From a virus (lineage: Duplodnaviria > Heunggongvirae > Uroviricota > Caudoviricetes), in IMG/VR virus record IMGVR_UViG_3300032213_000610, positions 1 through 64,000 of that record: a stretch of 64,000 nt of DNA; one strand, 5' to 3'. The notes beneath the pieces were generated by a model. The model saw only the letters and a program-made list of their open reading frames with translations. It made no database searches and was not told the DNA's origin. This document shows positions 5,257-22,381 of this stretch, one piece after another. How positions within the stretch are numbered: the first letter of the stretch is position 1; every line of letters starts with the position of its first letter. Made by a program: the position numbers and the translations under genes.

Positions 5257-7251
5257 TTAGAATAAACTTAATTGGTTCTTGTCAATATTAACTTTTCTTC
5301 TCTTACCCTCAAACTGTATCTTATGTATAATACGTTCAGCACGTTCTATGTAATAAGCATAATTGATGTTATCAAGAGGATGATCTGGTGGTAGATAATT
5401 ACATACATGCATCACCCATTCACCTGCTTCCACCTGACTAACATCAGCAGCATTAGTTGTACAATCAGGGTTCTTCACCTTTAACAGCTTTTCACCCTTA
5501 TTAGACACATAATATCTGATTAACTTATTGTACACTGTTTTTTTACCATTGGCTACTCCTTCATAATGGAAATCTTTGCTCGCTTTCTGCCTGAGACAAA
5601 AATCATATATGTTTGTATGATTATGAATGGTATCAGCCACAGGGATATCATTAACAAAATAACGCTCGAGAGCAATAGGTACAATCCTAGCTGACTTATT
5701 CTTGTGAAGCTCAAAGTCAGTGAGGAAATCACCTTTCTTTTTAATTTCTCCATTGGTTTTAATTGCTAAATAGTCATTTACTGTAGAGAATATAATCTTC
5801 TGATAATCAGTACGCTCTAATTCATACTGAGTTACATCCATCCACCACTTATTAATAGCAGTCATAGTATCAAAACTTGCATTTTTTACAAGTATTGTCA
5901 CTCCGTCTGTATTAGCAGATATTACATTAATGCCAGCTAGTTCATATGCCTCAATAAGCATTAGTAAGCTTAGCTCACCTGTAATAGTGGTGAACATAGT
6001 TAGTTGTCTATCATAGAGCCAGGATAGCATATCAGAGCTTTTACCATACACAGAGTTAACTGCAAGCTTCAATGCTCCAACAATACCTGCTATCTTCTTA
6101 TCCTTCTTAGCCAAGGGTTTAAGTTCTAGTCTCTTCTCAAACATCTGTTTGTATCCTCTAAGAAACTCTTTACCCAAATGCTGCGGATATTTACCATTGT
6201 TAATGATGATAGCTGGATAGTAAGAACTAACGTCCCAATCTATAATGAGTGTATCATCATCAGCTTCAAATATCTTGGGCTTATTCTCTGTGTGTAGCCC
6301 ACCCTTGGCAAATGTATAAGTGTTATCCTTAAACACTAATGACTCTTTAAAATCATCAGTGAGTGTGAATATCTGCTTTCTTACATGCTTTAGGAAGTCT
6401 TTTAGCTCTGGTGTCTGGAAATCCACATAATGAGCAATACAATCTTTGGCTCTCACTTGCTTTCTGAAATATCCCTTCTTTGGTAAATCACCATAGGACA
6501 TATTCTTTTCTTGGCAGTAATACTTCTTAATCATCTCATCACCTATCTTACTGTCAGAATAGTTTAAGCAAGGAATACCAAACTCGTTGTATATATCCTG
6601 TCTGAGCTCTATTTGGTTATTGCCCTTGTATAAAGGATGGTCTGTTTGACCAGTGGTAACTAAATAGAATTCATATGTGGCATATATATCATTACGACAA
6701 TAGTCAATAGTGAGCTGTATTTCCTCATCTGTCATATCAGTTTTAGTATGATGGATAGGCATTTCTTCAATGTTTGGAAGATCCATCTCAAACTCCAACC
6801 TCTTCAAGCTAACTCTACGATTCTTATTATCATAGTGATTCACTCTGAATAGGTCTATTTGTTTGAGTGTGAGCCATTCTTCTCTATACTCAGGAAATAC
6901 ATCATAGTTAGCATCATGTATTACATCAGCAGCTTTCTGTGCTATTTTAGCACACACTTCTAATGCACTTAAATCATACCAATCACCATGATTGCGTAAC
7001 ACCCACTCAACCACCTGACTATCGAAGCGTAGATTGTTATATCCCACCCAATAGTAATCAGCGTGCTCCTCTGTAAACCTGTGAAATGCATCTAATTGGT
7101 TAAAGTTTCTACTCACCTGGAATTCATACCACTGCTGTGTATCAGGATTGTATATACCTATTAGAAACAGCTCTTGCATGGTTTCTATGTCATGAACTAG
7201 TATTTTCATTATTCTCTTTTTGTTGCTCGTTAAACTTCTTCTGCTCATCAA
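5257..7251 (-). CDS. family B DNA polymerase with N-terminal 3'-5' exonuclease (664 aa; alternative start at Met-15, about 7209)
   Basis: Exo I ILVHDIET. Exo III-like YCRNDIYATYEFY. PolB motif A DWDVSSYYPAII (cf. DxxSLYPS). Motif B KLAVNSVYGK (KxxxNSxYG). Motif C region ISANTDGVTI. KxY-like KKKGDF. Confidence 0.8.
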   Translation of the reverse strand: MMSRRSLTSNKKRIMKILVHDIETMQELFLIGIYNPDTQQWYEFQVSRNFNQLDAFHRFTEEHADYYWVGYNNLRFDSQVVEWVLRNHGDWYDLSALEVCAKIAQKAADVIHDANYDVFPEYREEWLTLKQIDLFRVNHYDNKNRRVSLKRLEFEMDLPNIEEMPIHHTKTDMTDEEIQLTIDYCRNDIYATYEFYLVTTGQTDHPLYKGNNQIELRQDIYNEFGIPCLNYSDSKIGDEMIKKYYCQEKNMSYGDLPKKGYFRKQVRAKDCIAHYVDFQTPELKDFLKHVRKQIFTLTDDFKESLVFKDNTYTFAKGGLHTENKPKIFEADDDTLIIDWDVSSYYPAIIINNGKYPQHLGKEFLRGYKQMFEKRLELKPLAKKDKKIAGIVGALKLAVNSVYGKSSDMLSWLYDRQLTMFTTITGELSLLMLIEAYELAGINVISANTDGVTILVKNASFDTMTAINKWWMDVTQYELERTDYQKIIFSTVNDYLAIKTNGEIKKKGDFLTDFELHKNKSARIVPIALERYFVNDIPVADTIHNHTNIYDFCLRQKASKDFHYEGVANGKKTVYNKLIRYYVSNKGEKLLKVKNPDCTTNAADVSQVEAGEWVMHVCNYLPPDHPLDNINYAYYIERAERIIHKIQFEGKRRKVNIDKNQLSLF

Positions 7252-9957: not shown

Positions 9958-10131
9958 CTAACCAAGATGGACCGCAGAGCGATCCCAAAGCATTCCAACA
10001 TTGTATTCCTGACACCATTCTTCAAATTGTGGTCTGGTGTCTGGTTCTACTGTTTTAAATTTGATTTCAATCTTTGGTGGCTGTTCTTGGTTTTTAACCA
10101 CCTCTGATAATAAGTTTAGTAATTCTTGCAT
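9958..10131 (-). CDS. small hypothetical protein (57 aa; not in ORF track, below its size cutoff)
   Basis: Manually translated: MQELLNLLSEVVKNQEQPPKIEIKFKTVEPDTRPQFEEWCQEYNVGMLWDRSAVHLG. Fills an otherwise empty gap and is followed by a terminator hairpin. Confidence 0.3.
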   Translation of the reverse strand: MQELLNLLSEVVKNQEQPPKIEIKFKTVEPDTRPQFEEWCQEYNVGMLWDRSAVHLG

Positions 10132-10155
10132 GTTCGTGTGTGTTGGTTAATAATA

Positions 10156-10716
10156 TTATTCTGTATTATGGTCCTCAGGATCCCATACATCATCATCTCC
10201 ATCATCTAAATAGTCTTCATCATCATCCTCATCCCATTCATCCTCATCAATCCACTCATCACTGTCCACTGTATGTACATCTCTGAGTGTCACCTTATCA
10301 TTGTATAATATTGGAATTGGTGTACCATCTTCTTCATCCTCCTCATCATCCATAATCTCCATTTGTACCATTGAATTATCCCACTCCAATATATTATTAA
10401 TGTCTTTCACTGTTATATCCCTTAGATCATCTACATGTTCACCTTCATCCCACCAACCTATCTGTTCAGGAGTAGCGGCTACTACCTCTGTATCATCAGG
10501 ATTAATCATTGGATATACAAGATATGGCTTAACAGGATAGCCATATTGTACGAGATATGAATCCATATCCCTAGGAACTAATGCTAGTTCAGATACATAG
10601 AGATATTCTTGTTTATTCCCATATATCACTTCTGTTTTAACTCTTACAAACCACATACCCTTTTCTAATTTCTCAGGGATGTAGGATTTAAGTACGAGTT
10701 TACAATCTATAAACAT
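10156..10716 (-). CDS. highly acidic early protein (186 aa; candidate DNA-mimic)
   Basis: C-terminal third is almost entirely D/E (…DEEDEEDGTP…DEDEWDEDDDEDYLDDGDDDVWDPED). Confidence 0.5.
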   Translation of the reverse strand: MFIDCKLVLKSYIPEKLEKGMWFVRVKTEVIYGNKQEYLYVSELALVPRDMDSYLVQYGYPVKPYLVYPMINPDDTEVVAATPEQIGWWDEGEHVDDLRDITVKDINNILEWDNSMVQMEIMDDEEDEEDGTPIPILYNDKVTLRDVHTVDSDEWIDEDEWDEDDDEDYLDDGDDDVWDPEDHNTE

Positions 10717-10902
10717 AATATAATAGTTTAATATGAAAGAAAGCCTAGGTTTAATAGCCTAGACTTTCTAAATGTTTTATATCAGCTCTAATAAAGACTT
10801 GTTGTCCTTTAATAAGCTCAATTACATAGTCAAATGTAACCACTTGCTTGAATAAATAGAATTCTCTTGGTGTTAATTGAATTAGTTTCATGTGTATGTG
10901 TT

Positions 10903-11217
10903 TTATCGTCTGTAATATAATGATTTAACTGATTGTTGTTTGTAGAAGAAGTTTGGATCATTTGTAGGACACGAATGCTTACTAGAAGCACATGAGCCCA
11001 ATGATAGCATTACAGCTACAAATATAAATGTTTTAGTTCTCTTCCAAAAATCTATTTCTTTTCTAAGGTCCTTAATAATAAGGAACAATAGACATACAAT
11101 AGCTGCAAGGATAAAAATAACACCTAACATTACGTGTGACATTGTTGGTGCTGTAAGTAATAGATAACTACCTGATGTTGATGTGGTTAAAAAGATTAAT
11201 GCGAATAAAAATTTCAT
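10903..11217 (-). CDS. membrane protein (104 aa)
   Basis: Signal/TM segments (MKFLFALIFLTTSTSG…, GVIFILAAIVCLLFLII). Confidence 0.4.
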   Translation of the reverse strand: MKFLFALIFLTTSTSGSYLLLTAPTMSHVMLGVIFILAAIVCLLFLIIKDLRKEIDFWKRTKTFIFVAVMLSLGSCASSKHSCPTNDPNFFYKQQSVKSLYYRR

Positions 11218-11249
11218 GTGATTGTGTTTAAGTGTTTGATAATGTGTGT

Positions 11250-11309
11250 GTTATGAAAAAACATATCCTTTACCTTTTGTCCGTAGAAGGCTAATCCAAA
11301 AGGATATGT
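11250..11309 (-). terminator. minus-strand intrinsic terminator after gene 11315..11857
   Basis: Perfect 11-bp inverted repeat ACATATCCTTT … AAAGGATATGT. On the minus strand a TTTTTT run follows immediately. Confidence 0.55.
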
Positions 11310-11314
11310 GTTTG

Positions 11315-11857
11315 TTATATTACAACTGCATCTGATGTATCAATTCTCCTGAATAGATTATGAACGTTATTACCACTATAAATACTTCTTACATAAATGT
11401 ATTTGTATTCATCAGTGTTTAATTCAGCAACAGCTGAAAATGCATCTTCCCAATCATAACGACCATATCTTAATGCAACACAGTTCAAATCAGTATAATC
11501 TGTAATATGTCCATCAGCGTTAGAAGGAAACACCATTGTCTCTTCCATCATCTCGCTTGTAGAAGCAATAACATACTCTGTACTGATTTCAGGCTCATTA
11601 TAATCCTGTTCATCATACTCCTGATTTATCTTATCATTATAATCATCCCAAGGATAATCTGTATCAGGAGATAAGAATGAAGCATTATAGTCTTTCCATT
11701 CCCAACAATCATTCTCCATATAAGGAGTTTTAATTGTATTAGAATAAAGACTAACAACAATGATGTCTTCACCATTGGTTAATTGTTCATTGAGACTGGG
11801 CCAATCTCCAAAATGTGTTGTTGTTTGGTTGGTTGTTCTGTTGATAATGTAATACAT
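11315..11857 (-). CDS. acidic hypothetical protein (180 aa)
   Basis: ORF. First gene of the minus-strand block next to the divergent control region. A strong terminator lies downstream. Confidence 0.5.
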   Translation of the reverse strand: MYYIINRTTNQTTTHFGDWPSLNEQLTNGEDIIVVSLYSNTIKTPYMENDCWEWKDYNASFLSPDTDYPWDDYNDKINQEYDEQDYNEPEISTEYVIASTSEMMEETMVFPSNADGHITDYTDLNCVALRYGRYDWEDAFSAVAELNTDEYKYIYVRSIYSGNNVHNLFRRIDTSDAVVI

Positions 11858-12487
11858 ATGTTTGTTTTTTAGTGTATGTGTGTGTAAAAAGCGAATATAT
11901 AGCCTAATGTTGCCTCAGCTATATATTCTATTAGGTTCCATGTGCAACAAATCCCTCTGTACTCAGATGTAATGTATTCTACGGTTGTTTCAACCTGGTC
12001 AAAATGACGTTAGTTTTAATACGTACATTACATCTGTCAGCCCTGGGGAAGCTGAAATGGTACATTAATACGTTCTGTTAACCCACAGTCCGTCAAACAA
12101 GGGATTTCTAACAACCGCTAGAAACAAATGAGCCATATTACAGGCTCTTATGAAAAATACTCACAATCATCTAACTTATATGTAGAAGATAATTTTAAAT
12201 ACATACTATATGCTTCTTTATCTGTAAGAGAAACATCTACTAATGTAAGTACTTGTTGTCCTTGTCTAAATCCTACGAATGTAAATAGTTCTTTCATGTT
12301 ATTTGTATTTAATGCTATATGTATTGTATTATGTTTTACATACAACGGTTTGTAAAAATGTGCTATTTATCTGTCTATGGTCACACAGCTTCTCACATAT
12401 ATTCATAGAATATATTGAGAATCAATGAGTTAAAAGGATTTTATTCCCCACCCAAAGCATTGTTAATGCCCACCCTTATATATGAAT

Positions 12488-12520
12488 AAGAAAGAGAGCC
12501 CAATTAAGAGCTCTCTTTCA
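12488..12520 (-). terminator. minus-strand hairpin terminator after gene 12527..13069
   Basis: 9-bp stem AAAGAGAGC / GCTCTCTTT with a 10-nt loop. T-rich tract downstream on the minus strand. Its GAGCTCTCTT arm resembles the 9931-9942 hairpin. Confidence 0.4.
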
Positions 12521-12526
12521 TTATCA

Positions 12527-13069
12527 TTAAGCAGTGATTGCATCCATAATGCTATCAGTAACAGGAGCAGCATCTACTTCCTTGTAGATTTTATTCAATG
12601 TAGCTTCTGTTTGAGCCATAAAGACTTCTTGGTCAATGTTAGTGCAGCTTAACAATTGTAATGCAGCAACCTTTGCATCATTACCTTCGCTATCTTTGCC
12701 ATCACGTAAACCTTGGTCAAACTTAACGCTGTACAATCTACCCGCATCTTTCCAATTAACAAATTCATCATCAGTACCAACAGTAAACACAGTGCCATCG
12801 TATTGATAAACATTGTAAGTCTTACCGTAGAACTTGTGGTCTTTGTCTACATTGTAAGGATTTTTTGTGCTAATAGTTTTGATGCCCAAAACTTGTCTGC
12901 CTTTGATTTCAAGAGGATTAGTACCCATAGTGTTTGTTGCAGTGTTTATAGTGTCGCACGCACTTTTGATTATGAATTGCAATGACTGGGGACTGCCCCC
13001 AACCACTGCAAGATGTGGAGGGGTTTCAAATAGAAGTACCCTCCCCTCCCATACATATGAGACCCCCAT
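12527..13069 (-). CDS. hypothetical protein (180 aa)
   Basis: Isolated minus-strand ORF inside the control region with its own downstream hairpin terminator. Confidence 0.45.
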   Translation of the reverse strand: MGVSYVWEGRVLLFETPPHLAVVGGSPQSLQFIIKSACDTINTATNTMGTNPLEIKGRQVLGIKTISTKNPYNVDKDHKFYGKTYNVYQYDGTVFTVGTDDEFVNWKDAGRLYSVKFDQGLRDGKDSEGNDAKVAALQLLSCTNIDQEVFMAQTEATLNKIYKEVDAAPVTDSIMDAITA

Positions 13070-13652
13070 AGGTTTAGAAAAATTTTTTTGTCTGGTAGAA
13101 ATGACGTATCTTTGTATTAAATAAAAATGTAATATATGTATGGCATGATGCTACAGCTCAATCCCACAATACCCGTTTGGTGTAAAGCACATGGGGAAGG
13201 GGAAGCTATGTTCATTATGGACTATGGGCTAAACGTGAATACGGTGTGGCTGGTTAGATTACCTGGAGGGGTTATTAAACATTTCTACTCTGATGATATT
13301 AGGGTGTATGACAATCCCATGAATGGTAAGGGGGATGATGTGGAGTTTATTTAGACACTTCTGGGTTTGGCTGTGTTTTACTTCCTAGATTGTCAAGTTA
13401 TAGCTTGACACTTATTTACATTTTGTAAAGGTATAGCTTTACATAATATGTATTATAAGGGACATGCTCAGCTTGACAATGTTGCTTTTATAACACATTA
13501 TGATATGTTATGGCATATAGTGATGGATATTTCCAACAGATTATATGTATTATAATATAATGCTGTACCAGAATTATAACATCCTGCTATAGAAGTTATC
13601 CACAATTTGAAAATAAATTTGTTAATATGAATTCCCTCCCCTTACCTTTGGG

Positions 13653-13922
13653 GTGGAGGGTGGGTTAAAAACAAACAACATGATATATATAATAGCAACA
13701 CTACTGATTGTCACTTCCTTAGTACATGGTTTCTCCAGGTATAACGAAATAGATTTTGCATTGGAGATTAACCTGTTTAGAAGTCCTTATTTCCTTATAG
13801 GCTTATCGTATACAGAATTCACATTAGATGATGGTAATGTAGAGAGAGAATTACGTATAGGTTTCTTTTTCGTAAACATTAGTGTTCTGTTCTGGATAGA
13901 TAACCAAGGAAATGATGCATAA
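13653..13922 (+). CDS. hypothetical small protein (89 aa), uncertain
   Basis: ORF in the control region with an N-terminal hydrophobic segment. Weak support. Confidence 0.25.
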   Translation: MEGGLKTNNMIYIIATLLIVTSLVHGFSRYNEIDFALEINLFRSPYFLIGLSYTEFTLDDGNVERELRIGFFFVNISVLFWIDNQGNDA

Positions 13923-14001
13923 TATAGCATTAGGTGTTATAAATAACTAATTAAGTTATTTGTAGATGATTGTAAATCAATTACCTTTGCCCTAATTAAA
14001 T

Positions 14002-14364
14002 ATGGAACAACCAACAACCAAGAAGACAATAGTTCAGAAGCTTAGAAAACCTGTAGAAGATCAATTTGCTACAGCTGAGAAGTATTATTCCCTATTGTCA
14101 GCATTGAATGGGTTGAAGCTTACACAGAGGGAGATACAGCTCGTGGCATTTACAGCCATAAAGGGGAACATTAGTTATGCTAATATAAGAACAGAGTTCT
14201 GTGAGAAATACGACAGTACAGCTCCTACAATAAACAACATTATTAGTAAGCTTAAAAAGCTAGGTGTGTTTGTAAAGGATGGGACAAAGGTGAAGGTTAA
14301 TCCTCTCATCATCCTTAACTTCGAGAACGATATAGTTTTACAAATAACCCTTAGCCATGGATAA
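14002..14364 (+). CDS. putative winged-helix DNA-binding regulator (120 aa)
   Basis: First gene of the plus-strand block. Segment LTQREIQLVAFTAIKGNISYANI…ISKLKKLGVFVKDGTKV resembles a wHTH. Inference only. Confidence 0.4.
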   Translation: MEQPTTKKTIVQKLRKPVEDQFATAEKYYSLLSALNGLKLTQREIQLVAFTAIKGNISYANIRTEFCEKYDSTAPTINNIISKLKKLGVFVKDGTKVKVNPLIILNFENDIVLQITLSHG

Positions 14365-14707
14365 GCCAATAAGCATGTCCGTCAAGGACTATTTGATTAG
14401 GACGCTAGCTGTTAAGATGCTCACAAGTGAGAAGACAATTGAGGCTGTTGTCAACCATCAGTTCCAATCAGCTAACGAGGCTCTTGAAACAAACCACAGT
14501 GTAGAGATATCTGGATTTGGTAAGTTCATGTTTAACAACAAAAAGGCCATTAAGAAGCTAGAAGCCTTACATGCTAAGGTGGGAGCCATGGAAAAAATAC
14601 TGGCTGATGACACAATTACAGAGCAGAGAAGAAATGCTGCTACAGTGACTCTAGCCAACACACACATAACAATCAATCAACTAAAACCAAAGCTCAGATA
14701 TGATTGA
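14357..14707 (+). CDS. HU/IHF-family DNA-binding protein
   Basis: Signature beta-arm motif VEISGFGKFMFNNKKA (cf. HU ...GFGxF...). About 116 aa, typical of Bacteroidota HU-like proteins. Confidence 0.6.
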   Translation: MDKPISMSVKDYLIRTLAVKMLTSEKTIEAVVNHQFQSANEALETNHSVEISGFGKFMFNNKKAIKKLEALHAKVGAMEKILADDTITEQRRNAATVTLANTHITINQLKPKLRYD

Positions 14708-14993
14708 TCTATCAAAGGTTTATGAAGGATGGAGAAACAAGCTGTTTCCTCCAGCTAAAATGAAAGCTTTAATCGCTAATGTTAGTGAGGAAAGAATGGC
14801 CATTTGTAATGCCTGTGAGAACATATCTACAAAGCATAAGTCTATTAGACCAGATGTACATTGTATAGATTGTGGATGTACACTATCAGCTAAAACAAGT
14901 TGTCTGTCATGTGCTTGCCCTATTGGTAAGTGGAAAGAGATGATGACAGATGACGAATATGATGAAATAAAACAAGCTATCGATGGAAAATAA
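14700..14993 (+). CDS. Cys-rich (zinc-binding?) protein (97 aa)
   Basis: CNACE…CIDCGC…CLSCAC clusters. Confidence 0.4.
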   Translation: MIDLSKVYEGWRNKLFPPAKMKALIANVSEERMAICNACENISTKHKSIRPDVHCIDCGCTLSAKTSCLSCACPIGKWKEMMTDDEYDEIKQAIDGK

Positions 14994-15231
14994 TCATGAT
15001 GTCATATTAAGAAAGATTCCTTTATCAGTCTTATTGGACCACTTAACAGAAATATACAATTCTGGTGTGGATTACATTGATATTCTTGGTGTTAATGGTG
15101 TAGAACAGGATAAGATAGGTATTGCCTTTAACACATCATATATGTCTCCTGAGGAAGATACAAATCTAGACCCAGACGAGTCACAAATAAATATAAAATT
15201 GTCCGACGAGGACTTAAACCAATTATTATAA
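14983..15231 (+). CDS. hypothetical protein (82 aa)
   Basis: ORF in the operon, acidic. Confidence 0.35.
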   Translation: MENNHDVILRKIPLSVLLDHLTEIYNSGVDYIDILGVNGVEQDKIGIAFNTSYMSPEEDTNLDPDESQINIKLSDEDLNQLL

Positions 15232-15236
15232 ATACA

Positions 15237-15527
15237 GTGAGTAAGAAGAATTATTACAACAGTGTAATTCATACGCTTCAAGAACTACATAAGGGATTCC
15301 CAGAGTATAATATGGGAAGACACATAGCTACAGCTCTTGATGAATATGGAGATATATGGGGAATGACAGATAAGGAATTAGCCTTTGCCATGGACAAGTA
15401 TAAAACAAAGCTTGAAATGGATGTCCCTCATACAGATGAGTCTGAGCTTGATAAGATTATTAAGGAAGGAATGGATCTGGACAATATTTTAAAAGAAGAA
15501 GACGAAGATTATGGCGACAACTATTAA
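15237..15527 (+). CDS. hypothetical protein (96 aa)
   Basis: ORF in the operon. Confidence 0.35.
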   Translation: MSKKNYYNSVIHTLQELHKGFPEYNMGRHIATALDEYGDIWGMTDKELAFAMDKYKTKLEMDVPHTDESELDKIIKEGMDLDNILKEEDEDYGDNY

Positions 15528-15846
15528 AAAAACTACATTTATAAATACAGAGCTTGAGTGGGCTGAAGCACAACTTACATCTTGGAAACAATATGTAGAT
15601 GCAAACCCTCTTCATGAACTAAAAGATAGGATTGAGTGGAAACCTACAGCTAAGGGAGGCATGTTACCAATGGTGATAGCTTCTATTGAGGCACAAGGTA
15701 AGTTTGTACAAGAGACAATGAAGAACTACCTAGCTCTTATTGAGGTGGTAGACAAGCTAAGAAGTGTTGAAGAGGCTAAGGTGGAAGTGAGAGGTAAAGG
15801 GGAATTATCTGGTGCTGCAGAAGAGTTCCTTAAGAACAGAAGATAA
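15511..15846 (+). CDS. hypothetical protein; possible small terminase subunit by position only
   Basis: 111-aa ORF translationally coupled (ATAATG overlap) to the large terminase gene. Confidence 0.25.
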   Translation: MATTIKKTTFINTELEWAEAQLTSWKQYVDANPLHELKDRIEWKPTAKGGMLPMVIASIEAQGKFVQETMKNYLALIEVVDKLRSVEEAKVEVRGKGELSGAAEEFLKNRR

Positions 15847-17876
15847 TGAGTAGTGTACACATACAGAGTATAGATTACAAAGACTGGTTTATCAATCAGA
15901 AGCGTCTGCCAGACAGAGCATCTGATGAATATAAACCGTTTTATGATTTTCATAAAGACCTATGTTTAAATGGCTGTATGATGGGGGGTGTATATATCAA
16001 CCCCTTTTTATATTGGCACCTAAACATCTGGCATACAGAGGTGGATGTTATTGATGAGTATGGAAGGATTGCACAGAAATATGCTAATCCTTTATTACGT
16101 GATAACGAGTGGCTGGTAACAAACGAAATTGACAGAGCCCAAAAAGAAAGAAAGGGTTTAGTTATTCTAGGTATTAGACGTTTTGCTAAGTCCGTTATTG
16201 AGGCATCTTATATTGCATGGGGTGCAACATTTGATGAAAACTCACAAAACATTATTGCTGGTTTGAATGCTCCAGATATTAAGCTTATCACAGATAAGAT
16301 TGATAAGGGGCTTAACTTCATTCCAGAATATTGGAGATGGCAGAGAATTGAGGATAACTGGAAAAACCAAGTGACCCTTGGTATCAAGACTAAGTCTGGA
16401 GAACGTATCCCCTTTTCTTCCATCTTAATTCGTAACCTTGATGAAGGTAATAATGAGGAAGCTATTGCAGGTACAAAACCACGTAAATTAATTATAGATG
16501 AGATTGGTAAAGGGAATTTTCTTAGAGGTTTACAGGCAGCTATTCCTGGCTTCACTACACCCTATGGCTGGGGATGTTCTCCTATTCTTACTGGGACGGG
16601 TGGTGATATGAAGAAATTTATGGATGCAAAGAGCTTAATGTTCGATGTAGACAACTTCAATTTCCTTACATATAATAATGAGAAAGACACAGCTCGCATA
16701 CATGGACTCTTTATATCTAATAAATATAGAATGGAGGCCAAAGATAAAAGCTCTCTTGGAGCTTTCCTAAATGAACCTTACACATCTGATTTACATAAGA
16801 TTGAGATGCTTGTAAGTGACCAAGAGAAAGCTGACCAAATCACTGTGCAAAACTTAGAAAGACTTAAGAAAGCTGGTGATAGAGTTGCCTATCTAAAAGA
16901 AAAGATGTACTACCCACAGGAAGTGGATGACATATTCCTCAATGAAGATACAAACATCTTTGATATTGAGGCTGCTAAAAGACAGAAGAGTAAGCTATTA
17001 CAACAAGAAAGAACAGGTACACCTATTATATTATTCAATGATGGAGAGAAGATAAGTCACGAGTTTACAGATACACTTCCTATATCTAACTTCCCCCTTA
17101 AGAATAGTGATCAAAAGAATGCTCCTGTTGTTATATATGAATTCCCTATTGATAATCCTCCTTATGGATTATATGTAGCAGGAGTCGATCCTTATAGACA
17201 AGGACAATCTGCATATTCAAGCTCATTAGGATCTGTGTATGTTTATAAAAGAATGCATGACCTAACAGGTGAGAAATATCAAGATATGTTCGTAGCTTCG
17301 TATTGTGCTAGACCTGAAAAGAAGGAAACTTGGGAAGAACAAGCTAGACTTCTTATCAAGTATTACAATGCTAGAACGCTTTGTGAGAATGATGATATAT
17401 CATTTATAGAATATATGAAAGCTAAAGGAGATGCTCACTATTTAGAAAAGCAACCTCAATGGCTTATGGAGATTGTTCCAAATACAACAGTGAGACGTGA
17501 ATATGGAATACATCGTTCAAGTCAGAAGATAATTGATTATCTTCACAACTGTTTAAAGAAGTATTTGGAAGGAACGATATACAAAGAGACAAATGAAGCT
17601 GGTGAAGTTGTAAGAGAAGTGTTGGGTGTGAGTAAGATATTTGATCCTGTATTGCTTGAAGAAGTTATTCAGTACAATGACCAGGGAAACTTTGACCGTA
17701 TCATTGCTGCAGAACTAGCTATCGCTCAAGCACTTAAGATGGATCCTATATTTGGAAAGATTGGTGGATCTAGTGATGATAGAGTGAAAGCAATGCATTC
17801 AGGATCACCAAAGAACCCTTTATTTTCTACATCAAGAGGAATATTTAATAAAAGAAAACGTAAACTTTTTACATAA
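15846..17876 (+). CDS. terL: terminase large subunit
   Basis: 676 aa. ATPase Walker A-like LVILGIRRFAKS. Later D/E-rich nuclease-type segments. Immediately precedes and is coupled to the portal gene (TAATG overlap). Confidence 0.7.
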   Translation: MSSVHIQSIDYKDWFINQKRLPDRASDEYKPFYDFHKDLCLNGCMMGGVYINPFLYWHLNIWHTEVDVIDEYGRIAQKYANPLLRDNEWLVTNEIDRAQKERKGLVILGIRRFAKSVIEASYIAWGATFDENSQNIIAGLNAPDIKLITDKIDKGLNFIPEYWRWQRIEDNWKNQVTLGIKTKSGERIPFSSILIRNLDEGNNEEAIAGTKPRKLIIDEIGKGNFLRGLQAAIPGFTTPYGWGCSPILTGTGGDMKKFMDAKSLMFDVDNFNFLTYNNEKDTARIHGLFISNKYRMEAKDKSSLGAFLNEPYTSDLHKIEMLVSDQEKADQITVQNLERLKKAGDRVAYLKEKMYYPQEVDDIFLNEDTNIFDIEAAKRQKSKLLQQERTGTPIILFNDGEKISHEFTDTLPISNFPLKNSDQKNAPVVIYEFPIDNPPYGLYVAGVDPYRQGQSAYSSSLGSVYVYKRMHDLTGEKYQDMFVASYCARPEKKETWEEQARLLIKYYNARTLCENDDISFIEYMKAKGDAHYLEKQPQWLMEIVPNTTVRREYGIHRSSQKIIDYLHNCLKKYLEGTIYKETNEAGEVVREVLGVSKIFDPVLLEEVIQYNDQGNFDRIIAAELAIAQALKMDPIFGKIGGSSDDRVKAMHSGSPKNPLFSTSRGIFNKRKRKLFT

Positions 17877-20461
17877 TGGCAATTATACGGTATACAAAAG
17901 ATGCTACGATTAGGTATGCATATTTAAATATATTTCCAGATCAGTTCAAAACTGAGAAGGAGAAGCAAGATGAGAGTTGGATTAAAAACACAATGGATTA
18001 TTTTGCCAACAAATCATACGCTGAGTATGTGAAGAACAGAGACACCTTTGTCAAGAACTATGATCTTGTCAAGGGTATTTTGCGTATGGAGGACTTCTAT
18101 CAAGAGCCTGTTGTAAGTAGCTTTACACAAACATTAGAAGCTAACTTAAATCTTCCTTCGTATGTGAAGATGTATTCTATCATTACCACTCCTCTTAATG
18201 AGTTGGTTGGAGAGATTTCTAAAAGACCAGATGCTTTCCGTGTGAAGGCATTTGATGATGATAGCCAAGCTGAAGAACTAGAATTCAAAACTGGTATTCT
18301 ACAGGAATACATTATTAATCAAGCTAAACAAAAGATATTACAGAAAGCTGATTTACAAGGAGCTGAATTAGAAGAAGAAGAGCTTGAGCAAATGACAATG
18401 GAACAAGTGAAAGATGAGCTTGATAGCTATACATCTATCGCTGAGAAGTGGGCTAACCATATTCTTACATGTCAGAAGGCAGAGTTTAATCTTAAGGAGA
18501 AATCAGAAGATGCCTTCAGAGATATGTTGATTTCAGCTAGAGAGTTCTATCATATATATGAGGACAACTCAAAGCTTGGATTTAACATTGAGGTGGCTAA
18601 CCCTAAGAACACTTGGTTCCTAACTACACCAGATAGAAAGTATGTTTCAGATCCTACAGGTAGAGCACAAGGAGCATACGCTGCTGGTATTGTACAGGTG
18701 ATGGAACTATCTGAGATAATTGAGGCTATCCCTGATTTAACTAAAGATGAAATAGATCACTTACGTAGTTCTTTACAAGACTATGGTTTGATCAATGTAC
18801 GTGAATCAAATCTTGGTAATCCAAATGCGACACCTGGTATTGATTCAGTACAATATGATACATATGATCCATTAGTTCTACAAACTAGAATGATCATTGA
18901 ATCAGAGATGAAAGAGAACGATGATGGACTTAAAGACTTCTTGGGTCTTACATCTAATGTAAGCTCATTTGGTTATAAGTATGTGGTGGTTAGAGCTTAT
19001 TGGATCTCTAAGAAGAAGATTGGTAAGTTAATCTATACAGATGAAATGGGCAATGAGCAATCTATGCTTGTTGATGAAAACTATAAGAGTAAGACAATCC
19101 CTACAGAGATTTCTCTAGAATGGGGTTGGATTAACCAATGGTATCAGGGTATTAAGATTGGTCCAGACATATACCACATTAAACCATACAAATTATTAAG
19201 CTATTGCCCTATCATTGGATTAGTTCATGAGGTTAAGAATACAGAAGCTAAAAGCTTAGTAGACTTAATGAAACCATTCCAAGTGTTATATAATGTATGT
19301 ATGAACCAGCTTTACACACTTCTTGAGAAGGAAGTTGGTAAGGTGTATCTAACATCCATCAGACATATTCCTGTTCCTAAGGACGGTGATGCTCAAGATG
19401 CTTTAGATATTTGGGAACTAGAAGCTCGTAACAGAGGGGTTGTATTTATTGATGACTCTCCTGAAAACTTAAAGAGCCCTTCTAGCTTCAACCAGTTTAG
19501 AGATATTGACCTTACACGTACGCAGGAGATTCAATCTCGTTACACATTAGCTATGCAACTTAAGCAAGAGTGTTGGGAACTTGTAGGTATGTCTAAACAA
19601 AGAATGGGATCTATATCAGCTAGTGAGAGTGCTACAGGTACAAACACAGCTATTACACAGTCTTATTCTCAAACAGAACCTTTATTCGTAGCTCATGAGT
19701 ATGTTCTTGGTCAATTGTACCAAGCTATCATTGATGCTGCTTTATATGTAGAATCTAGTAAACCACAATCCACCCTATCATACATTACATCTGATGGAGA
19801 GTCTGCTTTCGTACAGGTGAATGGAACTGATCTCAGATTCCGTGACCTTAAGGTGTTCTTAACCAATCGTCCTGAAGATCAGAAAATGTTTAACGAATTG
19901 CGTGGATTGTCTCAAGCTGTTATACAAAATGGTGGTTCATTACATGACATCATTGAACTTTACAGCACTGATTCTGTACGTAAGATGAAGAAGGTGTTCA
20001 AGAGTCTTAAGGATAAGCAAGATGCTATGCAACAACAACAGTTGGATATGCAACAGCAACAACAAGAGCAACAACAAGAACAAGTTATGGCTCAATTACA
20101 ACAGGCTCAAGAAATTCAAGATAAGCAATTGGCTAATGATAACTACCAAGCTGAGCTTGATAGAATCAATAAGAAAGAGATTGCTCTTATTGCTGCTGAA
20201 TCAAAGTCAGGTCCTCTATCTGATATGGATACATCAGGAGTTCCAGATGTATTGGAAATCAGCAAGTTAGCGTTTGAGCAATCAAAAGCTGCTAAGGATT
20301 ACCAAGCAAAGATTAACGATATTCAATCTAAAAATACATTAGCTGCCCAGAAACTAAAAATTGAAAAGGAGAAAAATCAAATAGCTAGAGAGAATATGGC
20401 AAATGATTTAGCTGTTGCTAAAGTGAATGCTAAGAACAGAGCAAGTAAGAAAACTAAGTAA
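17876..20461 (+). CDS. portal protein with C-terminal Q-rich coiled-coil extension
   Basis: 861 aa, directly downstream of terL. C-terminus …QQQQLDMQQQQQEQQQEQVMAQLQQAQ… Assigned by position and size only. Confidence 0.5.
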   Translation: MAIIRYTKDATIRYAYLNIFPDQFKTEKEKQDESWIKNTMDYFANKSYAEYVKNRDTFVKNYDLVKGILRMEDFYQEPVVSSFTQTLEANLNLPSYVKMYSIITTPLNELVGEISKRPDAFRVKAFDDDSQAEELEFKTGILQEYIINQAKQKILQKADLQGAELEEEELEQMTMEQVKDELDSYTSIAEKWANHILTCQKAEFNLKEKSEDAFRDMLISAREFYHIYEDNSKLGFNIEVANPKNTWFLTTPDRKYVSDPTGRAQGAYAAGIVQVMELSEIIEAIPDLTKDEIDHLRSSLQDYGLINVRESNLGNPNATPGIDSVQYDTYDPLVLQTRMIIESEMKENDDGLKDFLGLTSNVSSFGYKYVVVRAYWISKKKIGKLIYTDEMGNEQSMLVDENYKSKTIPTEISLEWGWINQWYQGIKIGPDIYHIKPYKLLSYCPIIGLVHEVKNTEAKSLVDLMKPFQVLYNVCMNQLYTLLEKEVGKVYLTSIRHIPVPKDGDAQDALDIWELEARNRGVVFIDDSPENLKSPSSFNQFRDIDLTRTQEIQSRYTLAMQLKQECWELVGMSKQRMGSISASESATGTNTAITQSYSQTEPLFVAHEYVLGQLYQAIIDAALYVESSKPQSTLSYITSDGESAFVQVNGTDLRFRDLKVFLTNRPEDQKMFNELRGLSQAVIQNGGSLHDIIELYSTDSVRKMKKVFKSLKDKQDAMQQQQLDMQQQQQEQQQEQVMAQLQQAQEIQDKQLANDNYQAELDRINKKEIALIAAESKSGPLSDMDTSGVPDVLEISKLAFEQSKAAKDYQAKINDIQSKNTLAAQKLKIEKEKNQIARENMANDLAVAKVNAKNRASKKTK
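20020..20100 (+). repeat. CAA/CAG repeat encoding a poly-Gln coiled-coil in the portal C-terminus
   Basis: caacaacaacagttggatatgcaacagcaacaacaagagcaacaacaagaacaa. Confidence 0.7.
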
Positions 20462-20994: not shown

Positions 20995-21115
20995 AGTGAA
21001 TTACATTAATGCTATATTATCGTGAATAATGAGCCTTATAGTGCACTACCTCTTTGGTATTAAATTAGAATAATATACTTTTACATCTGAAAACCAATAA
21101 TAAAACAAACTACAT

Positions 21116-22381
21116 ATGGCTGAAAATCTAGAAAACCCATCAATGGGAAACTTTAGTATTCAAGATACTATGGAAATGGGTATGGGAAACCAAGAGCTTT
21201 TAAGTGATTTATTTGCTCCTGAAACTTCTACCAGCAATCCTGATGATATCCAAGATATTAAAGATGAACCTGCTCCTGCACCTAAACCTGCAAAGAAGAC
21301 AGTAGCTCCTGTTACTACAGAAGAGAATGATGAGGAAAAGAAAGAAGATGATAAAAAATCTTTACAGGACTTTTTACTAGGTGGAGATGATGAAGAGGAT
21401 GAGGATGAAGATAATTCTCCTGCTCCAACTCCCAAAGCAAAAGCTCCTGTAGATACAAATGATGATGATGATGATGAAGCAGATGGTGATGAGCCAGCTA
21501 GTGCATTTACATCTTTATCTAAAGACCTTTTCAAACTTGGTGTATTCACCAATGATGAAGATGAAGAAGAAGCTGCAATCTCTACTCCTGAAGAATTTCT
21601 TGAGCGTTTCCAAGCTGAGAAGAAGAAAGGAGCTATTGAAGTGGTAAATAACTTCATTGGTCAATTTGGAGAAGATTATCAACAAGCGTTTGATGCCATA
21701 TTTGTAAAAGGAGTAGATCCAAAAGAGTATTTCGGTACTTATAATAATATAAAGAGTTTTGCTGAGATGGACTTAGCAGACGAATCTAACCAAGTTGCAG
21801 TAATTAAACAAGCCCTCAACGATCAAGGATTTGATCCTGAGGATGTTGTAACAGAAGTTGAAAGACTTAAGAATTATGGTGATTTGGAAACTGTTGCTAC
21901 TAAACACCACAAAGTGTTGGTTAAGAAAGAAGCTGCAAAGCTTCAAGAAATGGAGCAAGAGAATGAAAGAAGATTACAACAGCAAGCTGCTGTTAAACAA
22001 CAATACTTTCAAAACGTTCAGTCAGTATTACAAGATAAACTAAAAACAAAAGAGTTTGACGGTATTCCTCTGAACCCTAAATTGGCTGGTGAACTACAAG
22101 ATTTCCTGTTAGTAGATAAGTATAAGACAGCATCTGGTGAGACTCTCACAGATTTTGATCGCACTATTCTAGAACTTAAACGTCCTGAAAACCATGCAAC
22201 AAAGGTTAAGATTGGACTTTTATTAAAGATTTTAGAAAAGGACCCTACTCTATCTACAATACAAAAGACTGGTATCACCAAAAAGTCAAATGAATTGTTT
22301 GGTGAAGTTGCTAGACAAGTTAGCAAAAGTTCTACAAAAACAGGAAATAAGCCTAAGCCTACAACTTCATGGTTTCAATAA
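21116..22381 (+). CDS. acidic coiled-coil protein, putative scaffolding protein
   Basis: 421 aa. Long D/E runs (DDEEDEDEDNSP…DDDDDEADGDE). Sits between portal and capsid genes. The antisense ORF 21160..21657 is spurious. Confidence 0.45.
   Translation: MAENLENPSMGNFSIQDTMEMGMGNQELLSDLFAPETSTSNPDDIQDIKDEPAPAPKPAKKTVAPVTTEENDEEKKEDDKKSLQDFLLGGDDEEDEDEDNSPAPTPKAKAPVDTNDDDDDEADGDEPASAFTSLSKDLFKLGVFTNDEDEEEAAISTPEEFLERFQAEKKKGAIEVVNNFIGQFGEDYQQAFDAIFVKGVDPKEYFGTYNNIKSFAEMDLADESNQVAVIKQALNDQGFDPEDVVTEVERLKNYGDLETVATKHHKVLVKKEAAKLQEMEQENERRLQQQAAVKQQYFQNVQSVLQDKLKTKEFDGIPLNPKLAGELQDFLLVDKYKTASGETLTDFDRTILELKRPENHATKVKIGLLLKILEKDPTLSTIQKTGITKKSNELFGEVARQVSKSSTKTGNKPKPTTSWFQ

Follow-up and report, generated by a model that had tools for sequence, protein, structure and literature searches.

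We analysed a 64,000-nt stretch of viral DNA (IMG/VR record IMGVR_UViG_3300032213_000610, positions 1 to 64,000; hereafter the window), and in particular the region at 11858-14001 that separates two oppositely oriented gene blocks. This region is probably an ordinary phage regulatory junction, and it holds an element, here called X, that from its conserved and covarying sequence probably represents a new and apparently undescribed family of structured RNA. The best explanation, and one that we consider probable as a whole, is that of the regulatory junction of a crAss-like phage, in which X serves as a cis-acting leader or intercistronic RNA alongside a pair of operators and promoters of the Bacteroidota type.

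The window (35% G+C) comes, as judged from its genes, from an uncultured crAss-like phage of an environmental branch, since the terminase (15846-17876), the portal protein (17876-20461) and the DNA polymerase (5257-7251, minus strand) belong to PHROG families of crAss-like type (6681, 6547 and 1252, respectively). The genes run leftward up to 11857, where small variable genes are followed by replication genes, and rightward from 14002, in a block of small genes, a winged helix-turn-helix (wHTH) gene, an HU-like gene, terminase and portal, and the divergent junction described in the initial annotation was thus borne out by gene orientation. By blastn, the region had no nucleotide match in INPHARED, which comprises 50,697 deposited phage records, and the closest deposited terminase (TerL, 39.6% identity) is that of Leptolyngbya phage Lbo-JY46. 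IMG/VR contains many relatives on contigs of ~105-118 kb, from which we sampled 162 loci, with the HU-like gene or the terminase as anchor. When window positions 10000-16000 were compared with these loci by blastn, several non-coding blocks of the junction were more strongly conserved than the genes: 11855-12068 reaches 90-97% identity in relatives with flanking genes at 70-86%, 13357-13399 is 95-100% identical and 12292-12330 ~90% identical across relatives. The following two features lie in or overlap the first of these blocks.

11945-12077, minus strand (read 12077-11945): structured RNA element X, matched by its covariance model (CM) with 111.6 bits (E 3e-32)
11893-11928, minus strand: palindrome GAATATATAGC-N14-GCTATATATTC, then CGCTTTTT; core of the conserved block A1 (~11888-11950, ~60 nt), between X and the ATG at 11857

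Anchored extraction of 33 distinct homologues gave X the minus-strand architecture UAAUG[Y]AC - CAYAA - P3 - P2 - A - GU[R]CA - GAGGGR, which on the comparative evidence is a three-way junction with a loop-tail pseudoknot. Helix P1 has 5 bp, P3 has 5 bp plus two U·G pairs, and P2 has at least 10 bp with a variable loop; the P3 loop, CCCCA in the window and CCCAA in the consensus, pairs with the 3' tail GAGGG to form the pseudoknot. In the window the element includes a perfect 13-nt inverted repeat (11964-11976 / 12024-12036). Copies span from 73 to ~240 nt owing to a variable insert in P2, the minimal ones (73-84 nt) being the size of a transfer RNA (tRNA). The proposed structure was evaluated on a MAFFT alignment of 25 hand-anchored homologues, in which 96.6% of the cells were paired, 11 of 20 pairs showed double changes and 56 cells were compensatory; none of 500 shuffles matched the percentage paired, the number of compensatory cells or the covariation score, and controls with a slid structure were only 23-53% paired. 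A second set of 77 further copies from pattern-selected IMG/VR loci, to which the extension of P3 and the pseudoknot were added, had 98.1% of cells paired, double changes in 21 of 25 pairs and 156 compensatory cells, and again no shuffle out of 500 equalled the real alignment, on any of five measures. The covariation can be followed in P1 (GCACC/GGUGC, GCGUC/GACGC, GCAUC/GAUGC), and the three-base pseudoknot of loop CCC with tail GGG has undergone two separate compensatory changes, to CAC/GUG and CCA/UGG. We also observed that AAAUCCCU at 12101-12108 of the window can pair with the X tail AGGGAUUU (11951-11958) in competition with the pseudoknot, as is likewise the case in loci L007 and L143, while L049 and L235 carry other sequences complementary to the tail.

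Several observations assign X, read as an RNA, to the minus strand. On that strand G·U pairs outnumber the A·C alternatives by 16:3, and the two U·G pairs at the end of P3, which hardly vary among copies, would become C·A if read on the other strand. Moreover, X has the same orientation as the tRNA genes in four loci, and an open reading frame (ORF) on the same strand starts within 60 nt downstream of 21 of 58 copies, compared with 3 of 58 in the opposite-strand control. By CM, X is present as a single copy in the 64-kb window and has 127 matches in related and pattern-selected IMG/VR contigs. The loci anchored on HU contain 50 copies, all on the strand opposite HU, and where the full 6-kb flank is available X lies roughly 1.6-4.2 kb upstream of the HU gene. 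A pattern scan of IMG/VR returned at least 120 further loci, of which the first 80 were run through the CM, giving 77 matches; seven loci among those 80 carry tandem copies (two or three), and in L235 three successive copies precede the first ORF of a long block of replication genes. Transfer-messenger RNA genes with tag peptides were predicted by ARAGORN in two X-bearing phage contigs (L174 8424-8818; L171 71-403).

The element appears to be confined to phages and matches none of the RNAs to which we compared it. The CM found no X in the first 80 pattern-matching bacterial or archaeal loci nor in phage Lbo-JY46, no match in sequence or structure was present in the first 9 kb of Cellulophaga phage phi14:2, which is also crAss-like, and the 5' half of X had no blastn match in INPHARED. 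In Rfam 15, whose families include hammerhead, twister, pistol, hatchet, HDV-like, riboswitch and tRNA models, the best matches of the window and of two other X loci were microRNA and small nucleolar RNA models at 12-26 bits, far below the thresholds, and ARAGORN predicted no tRNA in the window. A hammerhead was rejected by inspection, the core motifs CUGANGA and GAAA being absent from the junctions on both strands, and so was a short peptide gene, for which the indels in the junctions are not multiples of three and the covariation tracks pairing and not codons. Literature searches on structured RNAs in Crassvirales returned nothing relevant.

The position of X relative to genes points to its possible role. 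Start codons peak 30-39 nt past the GGG tail, across A/U-rich spacers, suggesting a link of X to the following ORF, and the proteins encoded downstream are unrelated to each other (53 unique, 40 of them singletons). From this arrangement we infer a role of X as a cis-acting module of early transcripts: it would be transcribed with the early, leftward genes inside a longer RNA, after two terminated mini-genes, and would act as a leader or intercistronic module on the processing, stability, read-through or translation of the ORF that follows. In loci L164-L243 a hairpin of variable sequence, with or without a T-run, very often stands 5-12 nt upstream of the UAAUG of X; it may either extend the motif or mark the 3' end of the transcript before it.

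The palindrome of block A1 separates X from the first long leftward gene. It is real, with arms AATATATAGC (11894-11903) and GCTATATATT (11918-11927) around a 14-nt loop, one base away from where it had been placed, and by a rough estimate ~0.08 repeats of this type are expected by chance in 2.1 kb. Block A1 is conserved in 16 relatives of the near clade, always preceding a leftward start codon (ATG) by ~20-45 nt, and the palindrome is absent from the wider X-bearing set. The loop is as conserved as the arms, a pattern not usually seen in terminators; perfect arms occur in 3 of 17 sequences, a T·G in 6 and a 1-nt bulge in 7. The stem is A/T-rich (2 G-C of 11 pairs), the tail seen in the window is reduced to CGCTTT in several relatives, and the terminator scan of the window did not call the site. 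The palindrome could serve as a leaky terminator or attenuator, as a hairpin for processing, as a site for a protein or as a portion of a promoter.

The most serious alternative for X, which we nevertheless consider unlikely, is a free-standing small RNA that would act in trans, either by engaging a host RNA-binding protein, nuclease or defence system as a decoy or sponge, or by mimicking a tRNA. The tRNA-like size of the minimal copies, the arrays of two or three copies, the nearness and shared orientation of tRNA genes in some loci and the apparent confinement to phages (77 matches in 80 viral loci versus none in 80 bacterial pattern matches) would all suit such an RNA, and phi14:2 makes abundant, stable early non-coding transcripts from intergenic regions at the start of its early block (bioRxiv 10.1101/2020.03.07.982082). 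However, none of 62 copies has a host-type -7 box (TAnnTTTG) within 90 nt upstream, a terminator-like site follows within 200 nt in only 8 of 74 copies, and the preferred spacing to the start codon ties X to the next ORF. Very unlikely, in our view, is that X works as DNA, in the form of an extruded single-strand structure such as a promoter of the virion RNA polymerase or a priming site. The virion RNA polymerase of phi14:2 does use single-stranded or denatured DNA, and no early promoter motif was found in that phage (bioRxiv 10.1101/2020.03.07.982082); in addition, X heads the early block, and any folded single strand would need preserved base pairing. In contrast, the strong excess of G·U over A·C speaks for an RNA of one particular strand, as do the two U·G pairs that hardly vary, a three-base pseudoknot with invariant junction bases is typical of folded RNAs, and X is often found between ORFs at a fixed distance from the next start codon as well as in tandem copies within an apparent single transcript.

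The slimmest chance of all is given to a metabolite-sensing riboswitch with the A1 hairpin as terminator expression platform. Its appeal lies in the compact, pseudoknotted junction with invariant bases and in the order of the window, where an aptamer-like fold is followed by a hairpin with a T-run and an ORF, but the downstream genes share no family or functional class (40 of 53 being singletons), the A1 hairpin is limited to the near clade whereas X is much wider, no alternative pairing between X and the arms of the hairpin was seen by inspection, and most copies have no terminator downstream. Improbable, though less so than a riboswitch or a DNA-level element, is the idea that X is a new class of small catalytic or protein-independent RNA, for instance a self-cleaving ribozyme that cuts at the UAA 5' of P1, an idea to which the possible quadruplexes of the G-tracts described below are related. 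Indirect hints of self-cleavage are the tandem and intercistronic copies, the invariant unpaired UAA 5' of P1 and the hairpin just upstream. The remaining alternative concerns the region as a whole, which was initially annotated as a candidate replication origin; on this view, replication would start bidirectionally near 13 kb, with initiation organised by palindromes, an A/T tract and the HU/IHF-like protein. An origin is possible but unsupported, and we hold it to be quite unlikely. The cumulative GC skew does have its minimum at 12-13 kb, with a change of sign between 12001-13000 and 13001-14000, but this turn coincides with the switch in gene orientation and therefore provides no independent evidence of an origin. 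Also in line with an origin are the 12-bp A5T7 tract at 13078-13092, which the two divergent promoters of the junction share, and two conserved palindromes of protein-binding type with the adjoining HU-like gene. On the other hand, the repeat families found in the region have only two copies each and form no array of at least three direct repeats (~17-22 bp), no Rep-type initiator was matched by Pfam or PHROG among the flanking ORFs tested, and most of the stretch is coding or accounted for by promoters. The two 12-nt units that had been proposed as iterons exist in so far as TAATACGT and GTACAT each occur twice, in permuted order, but relatives do not retain the TAATACGTACAT units as repeats; of the two copies, the first falls within P2 of X, in its variable loop and 3' arm, and the second overlaps the conserved 5' end of X and its flank.

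Whereas the reading as iterons and origin found no support, an operator reading of the tandem palindromes to the right of the divergence point is reasonable because conserved two-fold symmetric sites adjoin genes predicted to encode a wHTH and an HU/IHF-like protein. The features concerned are as follows.

13357-13389, plus strand: conserved non-coding block B1, ACTTCC-N-GGTTTGGCTGTGTTT-ACTTCC, 95-100% identical where genes are ~70% identical
13390-13410 and 13423-13443, no strand: tandem palindromic operator-like sites op1 and op2 (20-21 bp), consensus TTGTCAAGCTATAGCTTTACA, 33 bp from start to start
13444-13500, plus strand: long imperfect palindrome H1 after op2, in relatives TAATGTGTC, ~45 nt, GACACATTA
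14002-14364 and 14357-14707, plus strand: winged-helix gene and HU/IHF-like gene, candidate binders by fold prediction and Pfam, respectively

The palindrome TTGTCAAG-N6-CTTGACA, of which op1 (TTGTCAAGTTATAGCTTGACA) is the copy noted initially, is real, and a second full copy, op2, had been missed. At the further half-site reported at 13472-13479, several relatives have CTTAACAA. The op pair is unique in the window (four matches versus 0.09 expected in 64 kb) and recurs at a spacing of 32-33 bp in ~18 of 32 diverse loci sampled, mostly nearer relatives, with the consensus TGTAAAGCTATAGCTTTACA; both sites are two-fold symmetric and conserved among relatives. In line with the initial annotation, the gene at 14002 encodes a predicted wHTH protein, its 120 amino acids being modelled as a winged helix by AlphaFold2 (pLDDT 74); Foldseek placed it closest to the N-terminal domain of T4 MotA (E 2.9e-3), with MarR, Zur and ArsR proteins next. 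The HU-like assignment of the gene at 14357 is supported by Pfam (Bac_DNA_binding, 1e-8). We propose that op1 and op2 would each be occupied by a dimer of a DNA-binding protein of the phage, with the two dimers co-operating from the same face of the helix, and that this would gate rightward transcription; the modelled winged-helix protein of 14002 is the obvious candidate for this binding. The direct repeat noted beside these sites is present (13443-13458 / 13540-13555, 15 of 16 positions identical) but at chance level, since by a rough estimate ~0.4 exact 12-mer repeats are expected in 2.1 kb. Close relatives are without 13447/13520-13592: in L004, L005, L016, L088 and L084, 73-146 bp of window 13447-13592 are missing between two TATGTATTATAA repeats, which suggests a local duplication or deletion.

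The description of the ~2 kb as containing little coding proved to be mistaken, as 11858-14001 includes three or more conserved protein genes, three of them with tblastn homologues in 27-70 loci. The genes and signals between X and the wHTH gene, other than those listed above, are given here from left to right.

12130-12147, minus strand: terminator-like hairpin after ORF 12148-12300, from the terminator scan
12148-12300, minus strand: small ORF of 50 amino acids; protein not conserved, position of the ATG and 200 nt upstream conserved
12301-12489, minus strand: conserved non-coding block C with box ATATAGCATTA (12320-12310), palindrome CATTGATTCTCAATA, and TATATAAG, GGGTGGG, a short hairpin and TTTGGGTGGGG (12482-12446)
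12490-12519, minus strand: strong intrinsic terminator (12-bp stem and T-run) that ends gene 12527-12928
12527-12928, minus strand: conserved protein gene, 133 amino acids from the ATG at 12928 (ORF open to 13069); homologues in 27 loci, down to 25% identity
13044-13057, minus strand: leftward -7-like box and G-tract, TATGTATG GGAGGGGAGGG
13078-13114, plus strand: A5T7 tract, then rightward promoter with TTTG 13087-13090, 16-nt spacer and TATCTTTG 13107-13114
13136-13354, plus strand: small conserved gene, 72 amino acids; tblastn homologues in 37 loci
13610-13664, plus strand: conserved promoter with AAAATAAATTTG (-33), 21-nt spacer, TACCTTTG (-7, 13643-13650) and G-tract GGGGTGGAGGGTGGG; site of an annotated hairpin
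13680-13922, plus strand: small conserved gene, 80 amino acids; homologues in 70 loci, down to ~25-30% identity; N-terminus hydrophobic by inspection
13917-13932, plus strand: nearly invariant box GCATAATATAGCATTA, ~70 nt upstream of the wHTH start codon
13959-13989, plus strand: promoter of the wHTH-HU operon with TTTG 13959-13962, 19-nt spacer and TACCTTTG 13982-13989

Because the internal ORFs are genes, the true divergence point is at 12929-13135, where a back-to-back pair of promoters is arranged around the one common A5T7 tract. By its predicted genes and signals, the junction is a dense series of short transcription units, each with promoter-like and terminator-like signals of its own, and the region is largely coding or transcribed. 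With respect to the flanks, the first long leftward gene (11315-11857, minus strand) encodes a very acidic protein of 180 amino acids without a Pfam or PHROG match and with homologues in 33 loci, which might be a DNA mimic or an anti-restriction protein, and the HU-like gene is followed by a small ORF (14700-14993) with several CxxC motifs (zinc-ribbon-like) and homologues in 16 pattern-derived loci. In Lbo-JY46 (L405 1640-6180), ~20 same-strand tRNA genes stand upstream of the terminase module in place of the divergent junction.

Promoters of Bacteroidota sigma-A consist of TTTG at -33 and TAnnTTTG at -7 with a spacer of typically ~19-21 nt. Both boxes were found at 13087-13114, 13618-13650 and 13959-13989, with spacers of 16-21 nt, the 16 nt of the first site being shorter than the norm, and with 12-30 nt to the start codon; the three sites would drive ORF 13136, ORF 13680 and the wHTH-HU operon, respectively. 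The latter two align in relatives with an HU gene as low as ~50% identical. The GGAGGG-type hairpin annotated at the second site does exist in the window (CCCTCCCC 13634-13641 and GGGGTGGAGGG 13650-13660) but is not conserved, its C-arm missing in L013 and L015, and what is conserved is not a symmetric site but the TTTG / TACCTTTG promoter and the G-tract. In difference to the host consensus, two of the local promoters run straight into G-tracts, a feature that is, to our knowledge, not described for host promoters. In phi14:2, promoters of host type were found upstream of homologues of the IHF gene (bioRxiv 10.1101/2020.03.07.982082). The box GCATAATATAGCATTA upstream of the wHTH gene is present in essentially all aligned relatives, including those without the upstream ORF. 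The window has three exact copies of its core ATATAGCATTA, at 12310-12320 (minus), 13922-13932 (plus) and 21007-21017 (minus), compared with ~0.16 expected by a rough estimate. The motif GCATAATATAGCA was considered as a general promoter and rejected, with one exact copy and with the 11-mer core only thrice in 64 kb, once opposed to the flanking genes. The third copy of the box, ATAATATAGCATTA (21007-21020, minus), lies ~100 nt upstream of an ORF of 421 amino acids at 21116 and points the opposite way from the copy ahead of the wHTH gene.

The exact pattern of a -7 box with immediate G-runs is found at no more than two places in the 64 kb, 13044-13057 (minus) and 13643-13656 (plus), and 12482-12446 (minus) in block C contains a looser third copy, with two GGGTGGG runs around a hairpin of 4-5 bp. 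The stem of this hairpin covaries among relatives (GCAUU/AAUGC, GCAA/UUGC, GUGUU/AACAC, GUGUA/UACAC, GAAU/AUUC). At 12475-12446 (minus) the order is GGG-T-GGG, hairpin, GGG-T-GGGG, that is, four G-runs with a covarying hairpin in the long loop, and 12446-12482 may form a G-quadruplex whose loop is a hairpin, at the start of a transcript. The G-runs at 13650-13664 are of 4, 2, 3 and 3, and there are three runs at 13052-13041 (minus). Block C as a whole (12294-12496) was rejected as a folded RNA, RNAalifold giving no consensus structure. If the G-tract elements, which are unique to this junction, do form G-quadruplexes, they might expose the template strand to a virion RNA polymerase that prefers single strands. 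Related contigs begin in or beside a G-tract and -7 box equivalent to window 13643-13664 (L037 1-20, L068 1-20, L153 1-60) or at a C-tract (L134 1-12). A genome terminus or terminal repeat in the region was rejected on the first 39 nt of the 113.9-kb contig L037, which are not repeated at its other end; since this tested contig has no terminal repeat, we read contig ends inside G-tracts as assembly breaks.

Several known systems resemble parts of this arrangement. In phi14:2, non-coding elements of the same direction (intergenic regions g004-g006) stand among the first small genes of the early and replication block, and their RNAs were reported to be abundant from the earliest time point, with no explanation given for them; these RNAs have no described structure, X is known from sequence, and it matches nothing in the first 9 kb of that phage. 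In phage T7, simple irregular hairpins that the host enzyme RNase III cuts stand between the early genes. They share with X that structured modules are repeated just upstream of successive, unrelated early ORFs, and the hairpin often found directly 5' of X could likewise stay on the upstream mRNA, whereas X itself combines a pseudoknot with a three-way junction in which bases are invariant. The put RNAs of phage HK022 are antitermination elements that act independently of protein; as proposed for X, they are cis-acting folded RNAs near the start of an early operon and upstream of terminator-like hairpins, but they consist of two stem-loops without a pseudoknot and have no sequence similarity to X. 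As in the tandem operators of temperate-phage repressors, such as OR and OL of phage lambda, the op sites are two-fold symmetric, ~20 bp long, spaced by whole helical turns and located beside a small gene for a protein of helix-turn-helix type; unlike OR and OL, there are only two of them, known from their sequence, they overlap no recognised promoter, and the window shows no lysogeny genes. The iteron origins of plasmids and phages share the intergenic divergence point, the A/T tract and a nearby gene for a DNA-bending protein, but the junction lacks their array of at least three direct repeats and a recognisable initiator, and its candidate iterons are in or beside an RNA helix.

A number of points weigh against the proposed reading of X as a leader RNA in a junction with operators and Bacteroidota-type promoters. 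In the window X lies ~90 nt from the next ATG with the A1 hairpin in between, compared with the common spacing of 30-39 nt, and the plus-strand T·G of six relatives in that palindrome corresponds to A·C on the minus strand and is therefore a poor fit to a minus-strand RNA hairpin. The alignment of 77 copies was fitted to the CM, hence its pairing statistics are biased toward the structure of X. As X has no match in the early region of phi14:2, the parallel with that phage is positional only. For the op sites, the nearest -7 boxes are at 13107 and 13643, and they lie ~200-250 bp upstream of the latter, overlapping no recognised promoter. Finally, the host of Lbo-JY46, the closest deposited phage, is a cyanobacterium, so that a Bacteroidota host is deduced from the promoter motifs alone.

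Few known viruses are as abundant as the crAss-like phages, and the transcription and control of their early genes are largely open questions. For an environmental branch of these phages, the junction supplies conserved cis elements that can be tested, namely X, the operator pair, the invariant box of 14-16 bp and the promoters with their G-tracts, with X standing out as a covarying pseudoknotted module ahead of many unrelated early genes. If the improbable ribozyme were true, early transcripts would be punctuated by X, such that the upstream mRNA would keep its 3' hairpin and the downstream mRNA would begin with a pseudoknotted, cap-like fold ~33 nt before the start codon. If X is instead a module for processing, antitermination or stability, the hypervariable early genes, which are probably genes of host takeover, would be swappable within a common expression cassette, and X would add a new RNA family to the catalogue.

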